DNA from: Candidatus Nanoarchaeia archaeon
Lineage (GTDB): Archaea > Nanobdellota > Nanobdellia > Woesearchaeales > GW2011-AR9
Direction of reading: 5' to 3'
Assembly (NCBI GenBank): GCA_035289845.1
Contig: DATDWB010000027.1
Coordinates: 621-64,620 of the forward strand
DNA length: 64,000 nt
Shown one piece after another: positions 25,332-53,065 of the stretch. Both the position numbers and the translations under genes were made by a program. Numbering within the stretch: position 1 is the first letter of the stretch; the number at the start of each line of letters is the position of its first letter. Below the pieces are notes generated by a model. It was not told where the DNA came from. It ran no database searches and worked only from the letters and a program-made list of their open reading frames with translations.

Positions 25332-25427
25332 GGGTCCGTAGCCTAGCCTGGATAGGGCGACAGCCTTCTAAGCTGTAGATCGGGGGTTCGAATCGGCCTA
25401 ATAACCACGAAAGTCCCCTCGGACCCA
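25332..25427 (+). tRNA. tRNA-Arg(TCT) with ~21-nt insertion (putative intron) in the T-loop/T-stem junction
   Basis: Acceptor GGGTCCG/CGGACCC, D-arm GCCTAGCCTGGATAGGGC, anticodon stem ACAGC/GCTGT with loop CTTCTAA, T-stem GGGGG + TTCGAAT. Then 'CGGCCTAATAACCACGAAAGT' intervenes before the 3' T-stem CCCCT. A/T-rich box ~25 nt upstream and an oligo-T tract downstream. Confidence 0.75.
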
Positions 25428-25492: not shown

Positions 25493-25625
25493 GCGCCCGT
25501 CGCCAAGCGGCTAAGGCAATCGCCTGCAGATCGGCTAGTATCAGCCTTTATCGGCCATAACTAGGAGACAGCGATTATACGAGGGTTCGAGCTGTGCTTA
25601 GTACACGAAATTCCCTCCGGGCGCT
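25493..25625 (+). tRNA. tRNA-Cys(GCA) with two putative introns (~40 nt at 37/38 and ~20 nt in the T-loop)
   Basis: Acceptor GCGCCCG/CGGGCGC, D-arm GCCAAGCGGCTAAGGC, anticodon stem ATCGC/GCGAT with loop CTGCAG|...|A interrupted by ~40 nt. T-stem GAGGG + TTCGAGC, then 'TGTGCTTAGTACACGAAAT', then CCCTC. TATA-like 'TTTTTAAAG' upstream, oligo-T downstream. Confidence 0.7.
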
Positions 25626-47447: not shown

Positions 47448-49799
47448 TCAATTCTTCCTAGCCAGAACCACACTCAGCAGCCCAAAAGCTGCCAGCAGGA
47501 AATAGGGAATTAATTTTTTGGATTTGACTGAACTGGATTCATAAATCACAATACCCGGAGAGGTGGGAAATTCTTTGGTTTCTAAAATTGATTTAATGGG
47601 GGTAGTAGGTAAATAATTATTTTCTAAACCAATTTCACCACGGCTACTTACTCCAGCTAAAGTGGATAAAGTTCCCTCCGCTAAATTTTCAGCCTTAACT
47701 TTAGTAACATAAATGGTTTCAGTTAAATCAGTAGTTGTTTTAAGATCGTTTTTCTTGATTTTAACCTTTAATTTATATTCGCCTTCTTTCATCTCGGAAT
47801 CTAAATTGAGCCAGAAATCAACCATTTTAACTTCGTTCTCTTTCAAGGAAACGGACTTAGTATTGCCTTCCCGCTCCTGATCCACACAGGAATAACATTT
47901 ACTACCCCGATAAACATAACTCCAGACCTCATAATTCTGAGAGTAGCGGTCTGCCTTAAGTTGTACTTTAAAGGTTAGGATGCCTCCCTGTCCAATGGTA
48001 GTTGGAAGATCAATTACCTCAAAATTAGGATTGGAAGAGGAAGCAGTATTTTCCGTATCCTTAACATAATCTAAGTAATCTTTACAAATATTTTGGTCTA
48101 CTCCTTGCAGAGTTATTTCTTGCTCCGATCTTAAACCTAAACCCTCTACTACTACCGTGGCTTGGCCGCTAGAAATTTTTTGGTTACAATTGGGAATTAA
48201 TTGAATAGGGATAGTTAAGGGATAAGCAGTATATCCATCCAACAAACTAATTTTGCTAACTGAACTTATTTTTACTCCCTCTTTCTCTACCCAAGTCTGG
48301 ACTGAATATCGGGTTTCATTTCCTTTGTAAATATTTATTTTGACTGTAAATTGATCCCCCCATTCCACTTTATGATCATTGCCCAGATATGATCGTTCAA
48401 TTTCTAAGGTAGAGGTTTTATTGGGAGGGGCAGGATTGATAGCTATGAGACGCTTAGCTAGATTATTACCTAAATTGTTATCTTGGCAGGTCATATTTTC
48501 CAGCCAAAATTTAATTTCATAGACCCCCTCTTTTAAGTTGGGAGAGTAAGAATTACTAGCAGTGTTTAGAACTATTTTATTAGTCCAGGGGGAATAATCT
48601 TTAATTTCATTCCCAAAAACATCGCTGATTAAACCTCTAACCGTAATCTTCTGGCTTAATCCAACCAGGCGGGAGACCCGAAGTTGGAAATCTACATCTG
48701 ATTCAAAGATAGAGGTGTTAAGTTCCAAATCCAGTCCCCAATCACATCCACTAGTGTAAATGTTTTCTGTTCCAGATGTAGGTCCAACCTTAAACCAGCC
48801 TTCAACAAATTGGCTGTAACTCATCCCTTCCACGGCCTGAGAAAAACTTACTTCATCAATTAACTTATGTTCTGCAACGGGATAGCCAGTAAACAACTTC
48901 ACTTGATCTTGGATCTTACTTAAATCAAAGTCTGAGTCCCCATCCCGGTAAACAATGGTATAACAACCGGGACATAATTCCAGGGAATTAGTGTTAGAAT
49001 TGGTAAGGTAAAGTTCATGGTGGTCATCAGAGTCATACAATACTAGCCCGGCCAAAGATAAAGTTACTGGACCAGAATTATGTAATTCGATCCATTCCCC
49101 AAACGGTTTCAAAGCGAAATCATCGCCTAGCGGATCAACCATCACTTCAGTTATTTCTAAAAACTGAAAATAATTAGGATTATTGATTAGGTCATTAGAA
49201 CCTTCCGAAAAAGTTGAATTTATTTCAGAAGCGCTAAGTTCATAATTTTCTTGGCCGGGAGTTCCAAAATTTATCCAACTCTCAGTCCAAGATTGATCTT
49301 TATTTCGCTGCAAAGTTTTATTATTTTTATAACCACCCCAATTTTGAGTGTAAGAAAAATTTAGAGCATAAGTTCCATTACCTAAGGAGAGGGTATCTTC
49401 TTCATTACCTAAGCCATTGCCTAAAGAATAATCATCCACACATAAGAAAAATTGATTATAAAATAAATTACTGGAATAATCAAAACTGGAATTGAAATCT
49501 TGGTCAACTAGAATAACATAGCTATTAGGGGCAGAAATAAGTGAACATTCCGCGGAAAAAGAACAGCAAGTTAACTGATCTGTGTTTTTGTTGTCAGTAA
49601 AAGTCCAACCGCTAAGATTGAATTGGTAATTATTAGGATTATACAGCTCGATCCATTCCTCACCAACAGAAGGAGCATACATAATTTCATTAAATTCCAT
49701 TCCTTCAACTGCAGTAGAAGCAATTGCTAGGATTGCTAAAGTTAGAACACCCAACGATGTCAAAAATTCTTTGAACACCTCCCTTTTTACACCCATCAA
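47448..49799 (-). CDS. large surface protein with two lamin-tail-like (LTD) domains, signal peptide and C-terminal TM anchor
   Basis: LTD-like 'EIMYAPSVGEEWIELYNPNNYQFNLSGWTFTD' and 'EVMVDPLGDD...GEWIELHNSGPVTLSLAGLVLYD'. Signal peptide at the N-terminus. C-terminal 'LIPYFLLAAFGLLSVVLARKN'. Confidence 0.55.
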   Translation of the reverse strand: MMGVKREVFKEFLTSLGVLTLAILAIASTAVEGMEFNEIMYAPSVGEEWIELYNPNNYQFNLSGWTFTDNKNTDQLTCCSFSAECSLISAPNSYVILVDQDFNSSFDYSSNLFYNQFFLCVDDYSLGNGLGNEEDTLSLGNGTYALNFSYTQNWGGYKNNKTLQRNKDQSWTESWINFGTPGQENYELSASEINSTFSEGSNDLINNPNYFQFLEITEVMVDPLGDDFALKPFGEWIELHNSGPVTLSLAGLVLYDSDDHHELYLTNSNTNSLELCPGCYTIVYRDGDSDFDLSKIQDQVKLFTGYPVAEHKLIDEVSFSQAVEGMSYSQFVEGWFKVGPTSGTENIYTSGCDWGLDLELNTSIFESDVDFQLRVSRLVGLSQKITVRGLISDVFGNEIKDYSPWTNKIVLNTASNSYSPNLKEGVYEIKFWLENMTCQDNNLGNNLAKRLIAINPAPPNKTSTLEIERSYLGNDHKVEWGDQFTVKINIYKGNETRYSVQTWVEKEGVKISSVSKISLLDGYTAYPLTIPIQLIPNCNQKISSGQATVVVEGLGLRSEQEITLQGVDQNICKDYLDYVKDTENTASSSNPNFEVIDLPTTIGQGGILTFKVQLKADRYSQNYEVWSYVYRGSKCYSCVDQEREGNTKSVSLKENEVKMVDFWLNLDSEMKEGEYKLKVKIKKNDLKTTTDLTETIYVTKVKAENLAEGTLSTLAGVSSRGEIGLENNYLPTTPIKSILETKEFPTSPGIVIYESSSVKSKKLIPYFLLAAFGLLSVVLARKN

Positions 49800-49935: not shown

Positions 49936-50484
49936 ATGGGATGGTTATTTGGAAAAAAGAAAGAACCGCGTGTTCCTTTACCTGAAGGACACTTAGTCGA
50001 TGAGAGAGCACTACATTTCCCACCTCCTAGTTCAATGCGTAAAACTCTATTGGAGCCGGAAAAGGCTCGAGAACTGGTAGGGATGAAAAACCGTTCATCA
50101 GCCTTAGCCAGCTTGCCTGAACTACCTCAATTGGGTGAGGAAGTATTGCCTAGGATGGAAGTTAGAGAGAGGATTACCTCAGAAAGGCCAGGTCAACCTA
50201 AACGAGAAATGATGCTAGCTAAACCAGTTGTGTCCCGGTCCCGCCATGAAAATCCGTTGCGGGATAACAGTCTTTACCTAAACATAAGTGATTATAAAAG
50301 CGTCCTATTAAGAAAAGAACAACTAAAATCTGATACCTTAAAACTTCAGGAAAAAAACAAAAATTTAGAAAATTCCGAATTCAATGAAGATAAAAATTTA
50401 GAAAAAATTAAACGAACAATAAAACATCTGCACGATGACCTGCTACGTATAGATAAGATCTTGTTCGATCCCCAAGGTGATTAA
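49936..50484 (+). CDS. hypothetical protein (182 aa), first of three small coiled-coil genes
   Basis: ORF only. C-terminal coiled coil. Overlaps the next ORF by 8 nt. Confidence 0.35.
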   Translation: MGWLFGKKKEPRVPLPEGHLVDERALHFPPPSSMRKTLLEPEKARELVGMKNRSSALASLPELPQLGEEVLPRMEVRERITSERPGQPKREMMLAKPVVSRSRHENPLRDNSLYLNISDYKSVLLRKEQLKSDTLKLQEKNKNLENSEFNEDKNLEKIKRTIKHLHDDLLRIDKILFDPQGD

Positions 50485-50713
50485 AATGGAAAAAATGCCT
50501 ATTTTTGTAAAAGTTGACGACTACCAAGATGTGCTTGATCTAATCAAAAACATTAAGAAAAAAATTGATGAATCTAAGGAGACTTTATCTAAAATACATG
50601 AACTTAAAAATGAAGAAGATCATCAATTAGAATTGTGGCAAAGCACTCTAGCTGAAGTCGAGAAAAAAATTGAGGTCATAAGTCATACTTTACATGAACC
50701 CCAACAATTTTAA
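50477..50713 (+). CDS. small coiled-coil protein (78 aa)
   Basis: ORF only. Translationally coupled position. Confidence 0.3.
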   Translation: MIKMEKMPIFVKVDDYQDVLDLIKNIKKKIDESKETLSKIHELKNEEDHQLELWQSTLAEVEKKIEVISHTLHEPQQF

Positions 50714-50736
50714 CTAAATTAGATCAGGATTTTAAA

Positions 50737-51159
50737 ATGTCAACTAAGAAAAGGAAACGAGATAAGAAGCAGGCAGCTTCTAGCGGACCTAGATCTAAAT
50801 CTCCTAATTATATGGTTCAAATTGATGAACCTAAAGTATTGAGGAAGGAAGTATTGGAATCACTGCGAGAAGTTATTATTTTTACCAAAGGATTTGAAAA
50901 AATTGTAAAATTGCAGCAGGAAAAAGTTGGTTTGTTCACCAACCTGAAGGAGAGTGTAAAAGACCTTAAAGCCCTAGTAGACACTAAACTAAACCGTTAT
51001 CTACCGGAAGTGGCAGAGCCTAAAGTTTACAAGGAAGAGAAAAAAGAAATTAAGGCTGCTGAAAAGAGTTCCAAACCGGTGAGCAAAGAGGAGCAGAATC
51101 TTAACCAGCTGGAAAGCCAATTGAAGCAGATCGAAAAGCAGTTGAATGCGATTAATTGA
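50737..51159 (+). CDS. basic/coiled-coil hypothetical protein (140 aa)
   Basis: Lys/Arg-rich N-terminus and heptad-like C-terminus. Confidence 0.35.
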   Translation: MSTKKRKRDKKQAASSGPRSKSPNYMVQIDEPKVLRKEVLESLREVIIFTKGFEKIVKLQQEKVGLFTNLKESVKDLKALVDTKLNRYLPEVAEPKVYKEEKKEIKAAEKSSKPVSKEEQNLNQLESQLKQIEKQLNAIN

Positions 51160-51231: not shown

Positions 51232-51432
51232 GTGCGCGTGCCGGAGTGGTCAAACGGGACGGTTCGTTTGGCATGTAGGTGCTAATATGAGTCCAGACTC
51301 AAGTCGTTAGGGCAATGAGGTTTCCATAAGAAATCGGTGAAGTGTCCGGGAGCCATCCGTTGGTTTAGTACCTACGCAGGTTCGAACGCCAGTATCCTTA
51401 AGTGATCTGGATCGAAAGCCCTGCCGCGCACA
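51232..51432 (+). tRNA. intron-rich tRNA gene (~201 nt), identity unresolved: tRNA ends with ~32-nt T-loop insertion plus a large internal insertion
   Basis: Acceptor GTGCGCG/CGCGCAC plus discriminator A. D-arm CCG-GAGTGGTCAAA-CGG. T-stem GCAGG + TTCGAAC, then 'GCCAGTATCCTTAAGTGATCTGGATCGAAAGC', then CCTGC. Possible extra arm GGT-TTAGT-ACC. About 90 extra nt in the anticodon region. Followed by 'TTTTTATTTTT'. Confidence 0.5.
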
Positions 51433-51724
51433 TTTTTATTTTTGCTTCAACGGAGATATTTAAGGCAAGATATTATTTTTTGTTTAAAATAGATGATGGT
51501 AAAATAAACATAAAACCTACTTGGTATAAGGTAAGTTATTCTTTGGGGATGTAGGCAAGGATCAAATAGTAAGAAAAATTAGGTTGTGATTACCCACCTC
51601 AAGATAAAGTAGAAGGCCTAGCTAGCTTAGAATGGATTATTAGGATTACCCCAAAAGGAAGGAGTACCAGATTAAATTCTTCCAAAACCACATCTTTTTT
51701 AAAGGCAATTACTTTCCCTATCCC

Positions 51725-53065
51725 ATGTCTATAGAAGTCTGCACCCTGGGAGGTTTCTCCGATACTGGTCGGAATTCCACCGCTATTAAGATTGATGATG
51801 AAGTCATAATATTAGATATGGGGCTGCATATGGAAAATTATATCCAACATACCGAAGACCGGGAAGATGTCAGCTCTAAGACTTATTCTGAACTGCTAAA
51901 AGTTCAAGCAGTTCCGGATTATGGCCCCATTGAAGACTGGAAAGATAAAGTTAAAGCGATCATACCATCCCATGGACATTTGGACCACATGGGAGCCATT
52001 CCCTTCGCCGCCCCGTTATTTCCTAAAGCACCTATTATATGCACCCCCTTTACCGCCGAAATTTTGCGATTTACATTTGCGGATGAGAATATTAAGATAC
52101 CTAACAAACTTATACCTTTAAACCTGAATTCAGTTTACAAGCTCACCGACAAAATTTCAGTAGAATTGGTCTATATGACTCATTCCATACCTCACACTTC
52201 TTTAGTTACCTTGCATACTCCTTATGGCAAGATAGTTTACGCTAATGATTACAAGATTGACTTGCAGCCTACTTTAGGCCAGAAACCTAATTTTGCTCGC
52301 CTTAAAAAAATTGGAGAAGAAGGAGTAGTGCTGTTAGTAATTGAATCGTTGTACGCCCATGAACATAAAAAATGTCCCTCCGAATCGGTAGCCAGGCAGA
52401 TGCTTAAAGATACTCTATTTAGTATTAATACTGAAAGCAAAGCGGTTATTGTTACCACGTTTTCCTCCCACCTGGCCAGGTTAAAAAGCATAATTGAAAT
52501 TGGAAGAAAGTTGAATCGGAAAATTGTATTTTTAGGTAGGTCGCTGCACAAATATGTTATGGCCGGAGAGAAAATAAATTTAGTCCAATTTACCAACGAA
52601 GTGCAAATAATTCGCCATAAAGATAAAATTAATAATTTTTTGCGGAAAATAGCAAAGCTGGGAAGGGATAAATACCTTATTGTCTGTACTGGACATCAAG
52701 GTGAACCCAAAGCTATATTGTCTAGGCTGGTGCGGGATGAATTTGAGTTTAAATTTTCTTCAGGAGACATTGTAGTTTTCAGCTGTTCAGTTATTCCAGT
52801 AGAATTGAATAAAATTAATCGGGAAAAGTTGGAACAGCAATTAAAAAATAAAAAAGTACGAATTTTTACAGATGTGCATGTTTCCGGCCATGCCGCCAGG
52901 GAAGACCACCGGGAATTGATTGAAATGATCAAACCTAAAAATATAATCCCCTCCCATGCACCCTACGAGAAAGCCATAAATATTATTACCCTGGCCCAGG
53001 AAATGGGGTATAAAACCAAGAATTTACATTTGATGGAAAATGGAAAAAGGATAGTGTTGAAGTGA
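51725..53065 (+). CDS. rnj: RNase J-like beta-CASP/metallo-beta-lactamase ribonuclease
   Basis: 'IPSHGHLDHMGAIP' (HxHxDH), later Asp/His motifs. About 446 aa, typical of archaeal RNase J. Confidence 0.8.
   Translation: MSIEVCTLGGFSDTGRNSTAIKIDDEVIILDMGLHMENYIQHTEDREDVSSKTYSELLKVQAVPDYGPIEDWKDKVKAIIPSHGHLDHMGAIPFAAPLFPKAPIICTPFTAEILRFTFADENIKIPNKLIPLNLNSVYKLTDKISVELVYMTHSIPHTSLVTLHTPYGKIVYANDYKIDLQPTLGQKPNFARLKKIGEEGVVLLVIESLYAHEHKKCPSESVARQMLKDTLFSINTESKAVIVTTFSSHLARLKSIIEIGRKLNRKIVFLGRSLHKYVMAGEKINLVQFTNEVQIIRHKDKINNFLRKIAKLGRDKYLIVCTGHQGEPKAILSRLVRDEFEFKFSSGDIVVFSCSVIPVELNKINREKLEQQLKNKKVRIFTDVHVSGHAAREDHRELIEMIKPKNIIPSHAPYEKAINIITLAQEMGYKTKNLHLMENGKRIVLK

Follow-up and report, generated by a model that had tools for sequence, protein, structure and literature searches.

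Which tRNA is encoded by a gene that is interrupted so heavily that its anticodon cannot be read off, and how many introns have to be removed to obtain it? The question is raised by a 201-nt tRNA gene at positions 51232-51432 (+), here called the target, in a 64-kb stretch of DNA from a Candidatus Nanoarchaeia archaeon (contig DATDWB010000027.1). This stretch as a whole is referred to as the window, and all coordinates are positions in it. A preliminary description of the DNA had proposed for this locus a tRNA gene split by introns, with an insert in the T-loop and a variable arm of class II, and had called its isotype unresolvable by eye. Our analysis indicates that the target is very probably a functional class-II tRNA-Leu(CAA) gene of a DPANN archaeon (Woesearchaeota/Pacearchaeota type), with three introns bounded by bulge-helix-bulge (BHB) motifs at tRNA positions 30/31, 37/38 and 59/60. 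Our confidence in the details of its processing is lower than that in the gene model.

Excision of 51263-51296, 51304-51354 and 51387-51418, which together make up 117 nt (34 + 51 + 32), left an 84-nt product that ARAGORN called as class-II tRNA-Leu(caa) and in which all stems were perfect. The acceptor stem GTGCGCG/CGCGCAC consists of seven Watson-Crick pairs followed by A73, and CCA is not encoded at the 3' end. In the D-arm CCG-GAGTGGTCAAA-CGG, G18 and G19 are present and the D-loop is extended, which agrees with the tRNA-Leu genes of this lineage. The spliced anticodon arm GGGACGGACTCAAGATCCGTT folds as ACGGA CTCAAGA TCCGT, with a 5-bp stem and a 7-nt loop carrying U33, a leucine anticodon and a purine at position 37; A38 agrees with the CTCAAGA of intronless relatives. 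The long variable arm reads T-GGT-TTAGT-ACC-TAC, its third stem pair being U-A against C-G in the family, and the spliced T-arm GCAGG TTCGAAC CCTGC has a 5-bp stem and a 7-nt loop (T54 T55 C56 R57 A58). Aminoacylation by LeuRS and use in translation are predictions.

The spliced tRNA-Leu(caa) cloverleaf bore out the general reading of the preliminary description and resolved the isotype that it had left aside. The acceptor, D-arm, T-arm, GGT-TTAGT-ACC hairpin, upstream box and 3' T-run all lie where that description had placed them. Its figures for the inserts needed adjustment: about 115 extra nucleotides became exactly 117, and at least two large insertions became three. The insertion of about 90 nt was correctly located at the anticodon arm and consists of two introns (34 and 51 nt) flanking a 7-nt micro-exon. 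The 32-nt T-loop insert was right in size and site, with boundaries off by 1 nt, which leaves the product unchanged.

Because recovery of a cloverleaf alone is weak evidence, each solution was also scored for BHB geometry, defined as a 4-bp helix between 3-nt bulges with each strand cut behind its second bulge nucleotide. Candidate layouts came from a structure-aware enumeration of the anticodon arms (5-bp stem and 7-nt loop) that result from at most two excisions. Although 29 different anticodon arms were formally producible in the target, ACGGA-CTCAAGA-TCCGT scored 13.0, compared with 9.5 for the next best; the preliminary description would have been refuted had no cloverleaf been recoverable, and the one recovered here is the BHB-best of the 29. 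The enumeration nevertheless leaves room for a different intron layout and anticodon, that is, one of the 28 other arms or a tRNA-Gly(ccc) with a single 87-nt intron, which ARAGORN -i returned when the T-loop intron had been removed. The glycine product would have its anticodon split across the intron, a class-II variable arm foreign to tRNA-Gly, and no BHB. The sole single-intron candidate with BHB-like geometry (51269-51352) leaves 18 nt, in which a 5-bp stem with a 7-nt loop is impossible. With the alternative arms scoring at most 9.5, and with CTCAAGA present in all orthologs, including the intronless L007, L030 and L039 (L-numbers are labels of related tRNA-Leu loci compared with the target), we regard another layout as extremely improbable.

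Other ways of locating the introns were tried and set aside. When every single deletion was judged by ARAGORN, the number of distinct calls was 147, or 871 if the intron option was switched on, which made the procedure too permissive as a discriminator. With G-U pairs allowed, a naive BHB scan proposed 108 candidates within the 201 nt and was useful only together with the cloverleaf constraint. Sequence-only spliced alignment to intronless references invented non-pairing micro-exons (for example TAGG|GTTAGG against L054) and was replaced by the structure-aware enumeration. The minimum-energy fold of the whole precursor contained the acceptor stem, the T-arm BHB and a hairpin of intron 2 resembling a kink-turn (K-turn), with the D and anticodon arms missing, and left the intron layout unsettled. 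Group I and group II self-splicing introns were rejected, as the inserts are just 32-51 nt against a catalytic core of hundreds of nucleotides and gave no Rfam hit.

The three tRNA-Leu(CAA) introns differ in how closely they approach a complete motif (cut sites are marked by arrows). Intron 1 has the central helix GGAC (51257-51260)/GTCC (51291-51294) with four Watson-Crick pairs, flanked by the bulges GG↓T and AG↓A; its inner hairpin (h', 4+6 bp) is strong, and its outer helix (h) measures 1 bp. In intron 2, the anticodon stem serves as outer helix, the central helix is CTC/GAG (CTCA/GGAG, 3/4 paired) with an A-G mismatch, the 5' site lies inside a larger loop, the 3' bulge is CC↓A, and h' is distant; the BHB-like fold is 0.1-0.7 kcal/mol from the minimum-energy fold. 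Intron 3 has the T-stem (5 bp) as outer helix, the central helix TTCG/CGAA with four Watson-Crick pairs, the bulges AA↓C and AG↓C, and an offset h'. In local minimum-energy folds, the BHB was recovered for introns 1 and 3 (z=-2.4 and z=-3.1, respectively). Judged by their flanking helices against the strict hBHBh' form, all three introns are relaxed and of types already known (HBh'; hBH or BHL) from PMC5829648 and PMC4033280.

Table 1. Features of the tRNA-Leu(CAA) gene and its flanks in the window (all on the + strand; functions of the flanking signals are putative).
Feature	Coordinates	Strand	Description
Exon 1	51232..51262	+	tRNA positions 1-30: acceptor 5' strand, D-arm, G26, A27-G30
Intron 1, position 30/31	51263..51296	+	34 nt; HBh'-type relaxed BHB
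Exon 2, micro-exon ACTCAAG	51297..51303	+	7 nt: A31, C32, U33, anticodon C34 A35 A36, G37
Intron 2, canonical position 37/38	51304..51354	+	51 nt; relaxed hBH-loop motif
K-turn-like hairpin in intron 2	51310..51347	+	GGGCAAT-GA, stem GGTTTC/GAAATC, loop CATAA, bulge GGT, GA-AGTGTCC
Exon 3	51355..51386	+	positions 38-59: A38, anticodon-stem 3' strand, variable arm, T-stem GCAGG, T-loop TTCGAA
Intron 3, T-loop position 59/60	51387..51418	+	32 nt; hBHB-type
Exon 4	51419..51432	+	positions 60-73: C60, T-stem CCTGC, acceptor CGCGCAC, discriminator A73
TATA-box-like element TTTATAAAA	51188..51196	+	36-44 nt upstream of mature 5' end; putative promoter
T-run TTTTTATTTTT	51433..51443	+	directly after the 3' end; putative archaeal terminator

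Relatives of the target were collected with its D-arm 18-mer GCCGGAGTGGTCAAACGG as query. The 18-mer was identical in at least 120 genome stretches, mostly from DPANN metagenome-assembled genomes (MAGs), the majority of them labelled Woesearchaeota, Pacearchaeota or Nanoarchaeota. Nearly all of these matches are tRNA-Leu genes, and most are intronless and 83-85 nt long. The loci L122-L124 were added by a metagenome scan. The spliced product of the target was identical to intronless relatives at 69-74 of 84 positions; its anticodon arm is identical to those of the intronless Leu(CAA) genes L030 and L039 (Woesearchaeota/Pacearchaeota MAGs), and its variable arm and T-arm to those of the intronless L054. 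When the cloverleaf was imposed on 37 intronless relatives, 99.8% of the cells were paired and 15 pairs were changed on both sides. The D-stem columns were invariant, and the first variable-arm pair covaried (G-C in 20, A-U in 17). DPANN-type tRNA-Leu genes were also present in many MAG records titled "uncultured Methanosarcinales archaeon" (L033, L070, L108, L062, L023, L094, L102 and others), and L033, L070, L108 and L062 additionally have the neighbouring genes of the window in common; judged by these sequences, the "Methanosarcinales" labels look wrong.

Among related genes, 23 have introns, and in each of them the best BHB-guided solution was the same as in the target; that layout also won in all 21 homologs with an anticodon-arm intron. 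With the target included, introns occur at 30/31 in 12 genes, at 37/38 in 19 and at 59/60 in 7, and L033, L107 and L021 have three each. The central helix at 30/31 covaries across the 12 genes (GGAC/GTCC in three, GGAT/ATCC in four, and GGCT/GGCT, GGCC/GGCT or GGTC/GACT in the others), and that at 59/60 changes from TTCG/CGAA to TCCG/CGGA in L021. The ACTCAAG micro-exon stands between the same two introns in L033, L070, L096, L122, L123 and L124, and is replaced by GCTTAGG in the Leu(TAG) genes L107, L021, L098, L115 and L086. Intron 1 of L124 is near-identical to that of the target. The 59/60 intron is common to L033, L107, L021, L071, L023 and L094, and to the tRNA-Arg and tRNA-Cys genes of the window described below. 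A further intron position in this tRNA-Leu family was seen in a tRNA-Leu(TAA) gene (L084, JBDRGP010000032.1), which has introns of 49 nt at 53/54 (the T-stem/T-loop junction), 22 nt at 30/31 and 11 nt at 37/38.

Gene order around the target is conserved as hyp75-hyp140-tRNA-RNase J-PCNA. The tRNA gene at this place has no intron in L007, two in L070, L123, L124 and L071, and three in L033 and the target, while the RNase J of the diverged members is 47-63% identical. By this synteny the tRNA genes are positional orthologs that differ through intron gain or loss. Sequence and comparison together show where the exons and introns of the target begin and end, that each of the six splice sites has BHB-type geometry, what the 84-nt product is, and that the layout is conserved in positional orthologs.

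Standard tools did not detect the target. Neither ARAGORN nor Rfam (at gathering thresholds, even at E<=10) reported a tRNA at this locus or elsewhere in the 64 kb, and ARAGORN with intron options gave nothing on the raw window under default thresholds; relaxing these produced spurious calls (13 to 110), which were discarded. As a control, ARAGORN and Rfam found the intronless orthologs (55.9-60.1 bits), whereas every intron-bearing ortholog was missed. A lineage-specific covariance model built from the 37 intronless relatives recovered both halves of the gene as the two best matches in the window, 51342-51432 (24.5 bits, E=5.5e-4) and 51232-51295 (20.9 bits, E=4.5e-3), and its alignment set a 33-nt insertion right behind TTCGAA. 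Together with the D-arm matches, these hits show that the likeness to a tRNA is not accidental. Two other tRNA genes were identified in the window. A tRNA-Arg(TCT) gene at 25332-25427 (+) has a 21-nt intron at 59/60, and a tRNA-Cys(GCA) gene at 25493-25625 (+) has introns of 40 nt at 37/38 and 20 nt at 59/60; ARAGORN called both spliced products. Since a T-loop intron is present in each of the three tRNA genes of the window, none of them is seen by ARAGORN or Rfam. The preliminary description had compared the T-loop insert of the target with those of the tRNAs at 25.3 kb. The position is indeed the same, but the common 3' end is CGAAA(G/T) rather than CGAAAGC, and this end provides the pairing partner of the T-loop TTCG.

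Several points weigh against a functional three-intron tRNA-Leu(CAA) gene. Intron 1 is practically without an outer helix; intron 2 has a central helix of three pairs plus the A-G mismatch, its 5' site is in a large loop, and its local fold is no stabler than shuffles (z=-0.26). Recovery of a cloverleaf does not discriminate by itself, as ARAGORN takes many alternative excisions. Expression, splice sites and splicing order are all inferred, and a second, intact tRNA-Leu(CAA) gene may exist elsewhere in the genome. Homologs of EndA, L7Ae or fibrillarin were not found in the window, in a weak test. The imperfect BHB of intron 2 and the failure of standard tools are also what would be seen if the locus were a decaying tRNA-Leu pseudogene filled with insertions that had lost processing to a working tRNA. 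However, random insertions would not allow an exact 7-nt anticodon loop and a 7-nt T-loop to be restored, the spliced product pairs perfectly in each of its five stems, and TATA-like and T-run signals are present. Diverged positional orthologs, moreover, keep the same two or three intron positions with compensatory changes in the BHB helices. A pseudogene therefore seems very unlikely.

For the functional gene, processing can be proposed as follows. Transcription would run from the TATA-like box to the T-run and yield a precursor of about 200 nt. EndA would cleave inside the two 3-nt bulges of each motif, as expected from established archaeal biology. Because introns 1 and 2 have relaxed motifs, the enzyme is proposed to be a broad-specificity form, probably alpha4 with an L3 loop. 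RtcB would then ligate the four exons, the 7-nt micro-exon included, and RNase P and a 3' nuclease would trim the ends; as CCA is not encoded, it would be added by the CCA-adding enzyme. The BHB helix of intron 1 is built on G25-C28, of which G25 is also part of the D-stem and A27 and C28 of the anticodon stem, so the precursor would have to refold between cuts and splicing is probably sequential. An additional pairing was found between the apical part of intron 1 (51275-51285, GTAGGTGCTAA) and the variable arm (51364-51374, TTAGTACCTAC), with 11-bp complementarity that only 2 of 500 shuffles matched. The complementarity is 10 bp in L124, L096 and L122 and 8 bp in L123, and it is absent in L033, L070 and the Leu(TAG) genes. 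In the T-loop intron, the hairpin loop 51396-51402 (CTTAAGT on a 7-bp stem) resembles the anticodon arm of tRNA-Leu(UAA); the likeness is probably due to chance because CTTAAG is palindromic.

Does the K-turn-like hairpin of intron 2 have a role of its own? It is composed of a GA (51317-51318), a 6-bp stem with a G-C closing pair (51319-51324/51330-51335), the bulge GGU (51336-51338) and a second GA (51339-51340), and its non-canonical (NC) stem is paired at 6/7 positions. Among 17 long introns at 37/38 in related tRNA-Leu genes, nine had the strict motif; in 300 shuffles the mean was 1.39 and the maximum 6. In the 12 introns with a K-turn-like element (the target, L124, L123, L122, L096, L033, L071, L108, L079, L003, L107 and L021), there is no variation in the GA/GA core or in the U at bulge position 3, whereas stem and loop sequences vary. 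These pairs were tabulated from motif anchors because the Leu(TAG) introns were misaligned by MAFFT. The motif is lacking in short 37/38 introns of related genes and is therefore not needed for splicing. The hairpin probably binds L7Ae.

A guide function is suggested by the position of a short antisense element and by precedent. Upstream of the NUGA box, UUGAG(U) occurs in 7/9 orthologous Leu(CAA) introns (L096, L122, L123, L033, L071, L108 and L079); it is complementary to the anticodon loop CUCAA, and the N+5 register places its fifth nucleotide opposite C34. In the Leu(TAG) introns L003, L021 and L102, the corresponding register holds GG(A/G), which pairs with positions 39-41 in a match that is not statistically significant alone. 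In Pyrococcus, C/D sRNAs target position 34 of tRNA-Leu(CAA) (PMC7994747). Moreover, the pre-tRNA-Trp intron of euryarchaea is a box C/D guide (Clouet d'Orval 2001; Singh 2004; as cited in PMC7994747). Like that intron, the present one lies at 37/38, is about 50 nt or longer and has a K-turn-forming GA/GA, and several orthologs have an N+5 antisense to position 34. It is conceivable, then, that the locus serves mainly as host of a functional intron RNA, with the 37/38 K-turn intron under selection (for example as an L7Ae/Nop5/fibrillarin half-mer guide) and the tRNA as its carrier; the retention of the K-turn core in 12 introns of otherwise variable sequence fits this view.

Several observations, however, speak against it. 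When the N+5 register was compared with shuffled guides, the 6-7 bp duplexes of the orthologs were not significant (equalled or exceeded in 225-634 of 1000 for six of the seven, and in 96 of 1000 for L123), and a match to C56 (8 bp in L123) did as well as the duplexes to C34. The best guide duplex of the target is 5 bp and was equalled or beaten by 876 of 1000 shuffles, the UUGAG antisense element being broken in the target and in L124. Intron 2 lacks canonical boxes C and D and contains one GA/GA motif only, of the D'-hairpin-C' type, and its terminal UGAG/GGAG is a BHB strand. It departs from the pre-tRNA-Trp intron by its one K-turn (C'/D' type, hairpin C-stem), the missing terminal C/D boxes, and an antisense of at most 7 bp that is broken in the target. 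No Rfam hit was obtained, even at E<=10, and in many related tRNA-Leu genes the intron is short and free of a K-turn or is missing altogether. We therefore consider it unlikely that an intron RNA is the main product of the locus. That the intron with its L7Ae-bound K-turn was ancestrally a cis-acting half-mer guide, acting with Nop5-fibrillarin in 2'-O-methylation of C34 and now with decayed antisense in the target, is likewise unlikely. If true, the guide intron would be the DPANN counterpart of the euryarchaeal tRNA-Trp intron guide, with the ancestral form kept in the seven orthologs that retain UUGAG(U).

The tRNA-Leu(CAA) gene is intergenic. The flanking genes end at 51159 and start at 51725, and only trivial open reading frames of 26-76 aa lie in between. 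The upstream TATA-like box and the 3' T-run are inferred from sequence to be the promoter and terminator. Boxes resembling TTTATAAAA, namely TTTAAAAG and TTTTTAAAG, precede the other two tRNA genes in the window by 25-33 nt, and similar ones were found upstream of the orthologs L122 and L124; T-runs likewise trail the tRNA-Arg and tRNA-Cys genes. The window has a GC content of about 36%, has matches among contigs of sequencing run SRR3989344, and codes for archaeal PCNA, ThiI and a beta-CASP RNase J next to the target. With the labels of the relatives, this indicates a DPANN archaeon of the Woesearchaeota/Pacearchaeota group. The region upstream of the target, 47448-49796 (-) and 49936-51159 (+), codes for a 782-aa protein with lamin-tail domains and three small proteins without a Pfam match, two of which (75 aa and 140 aa) are kept beside the tRNA in relatives.

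How does this gene compare with disrupted tRNAs already described? Archaeal tRNAs with up to three introns, the reported maximum, are known, and those of Thermoproteales are well described (PMC4033280, PMC3218864); multiple-intron tRNA genes in Pyrobaculum and Thermofilum were reported by Sugahara et al. (2008), as summarized in these two papers. The target is thus of a kind already known and is at the known maximum of three introns. The Thermoproteales genes have the same protein-spliced BHB introns at canonical and non-canonical positions, up to three in number and with relaxed motifs, require a broad-specificity EndA, and are missed by gene finders. The target differs in several respects: its host is a low-GC, apparently non-thermophilic DPANN archaeon and not a member of the Crenarchaeota, and the complete anticodon sits in a 7-nt micro-exon between its two anticodon-arm introns. 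Its EndA would probably be alpha4 with an L3 loop, an assignment that rests on the literature, in contrast to the (alpha-beta)2 enzyme with a Crenarchaea-specific loop in Thermoproteales.

Closer to the target are the disrupted tRNAs of DPANN. In Kaneta et al. (2018, PMC5829648), the L3-loop alpha4 EndA and increased tRNA gene disruption are reported for DPANN including Woesearchaeota and Pacearchaeota. Their material included one genome of each, and incomplete tRNA sets were ascribed to unidentified disrupted tRNA genes. The target belongs to the same superphylum as the cases presented there (ARMAN-2 epsilon2 EndA substrates among them). Multiple-intron tRNAs and an L3-loop EndA are reported in that paper, and the target is a concrete case of such disruption. 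A tRNA-Leu family with 30/31, 37/38 and 59/60 introns and a K-turn was not met in the portion of PMC5829648 consulted, and we found no paper that specifically describes this intron family. The junctions themselves are known from split and permuted tRNAs (PMC3218864), 30/31 from the split tRNA-Lys(CUU) of Nanoarchaeum equitans and 59/60 from permuted tRNAs of Thermofilum pendens and Cyanidioschyzon merolae. BHB motifs and the same endonuclease are likewise involved in these, but the pieces of the target are contiguous and separated by cis introns, being neither separate genes nor circularly permuted. A eukaryotic nuclear tRNA gene also has three introns, one of them in the T-arm, and differs in intron positions and in endonuclease recognition.

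As described above, the target is a concrete case of why the tRNA sets of DPANN archaea look incomplete. When tRNAs appear to be missing from such MAGs, an intron-aware search is needed before gene loss or dependence on a host is inferred. In the tRNA-Leu family, syntenic orthologs have from none to three introns at fixed sites and so provide a clean series of natural variants in which the gain and loss of introns could be dated. The combination of HBh', hBH-loop and hBHB motifs with a 7-nt micro-exon in one precursor provides substrates on which the proposed broad specificity of the L3-loop alpha4 EndA could be tested, and the K-turn of the 37/38 intron is a small new lead on the possible roles of archaeal tRNA introns.

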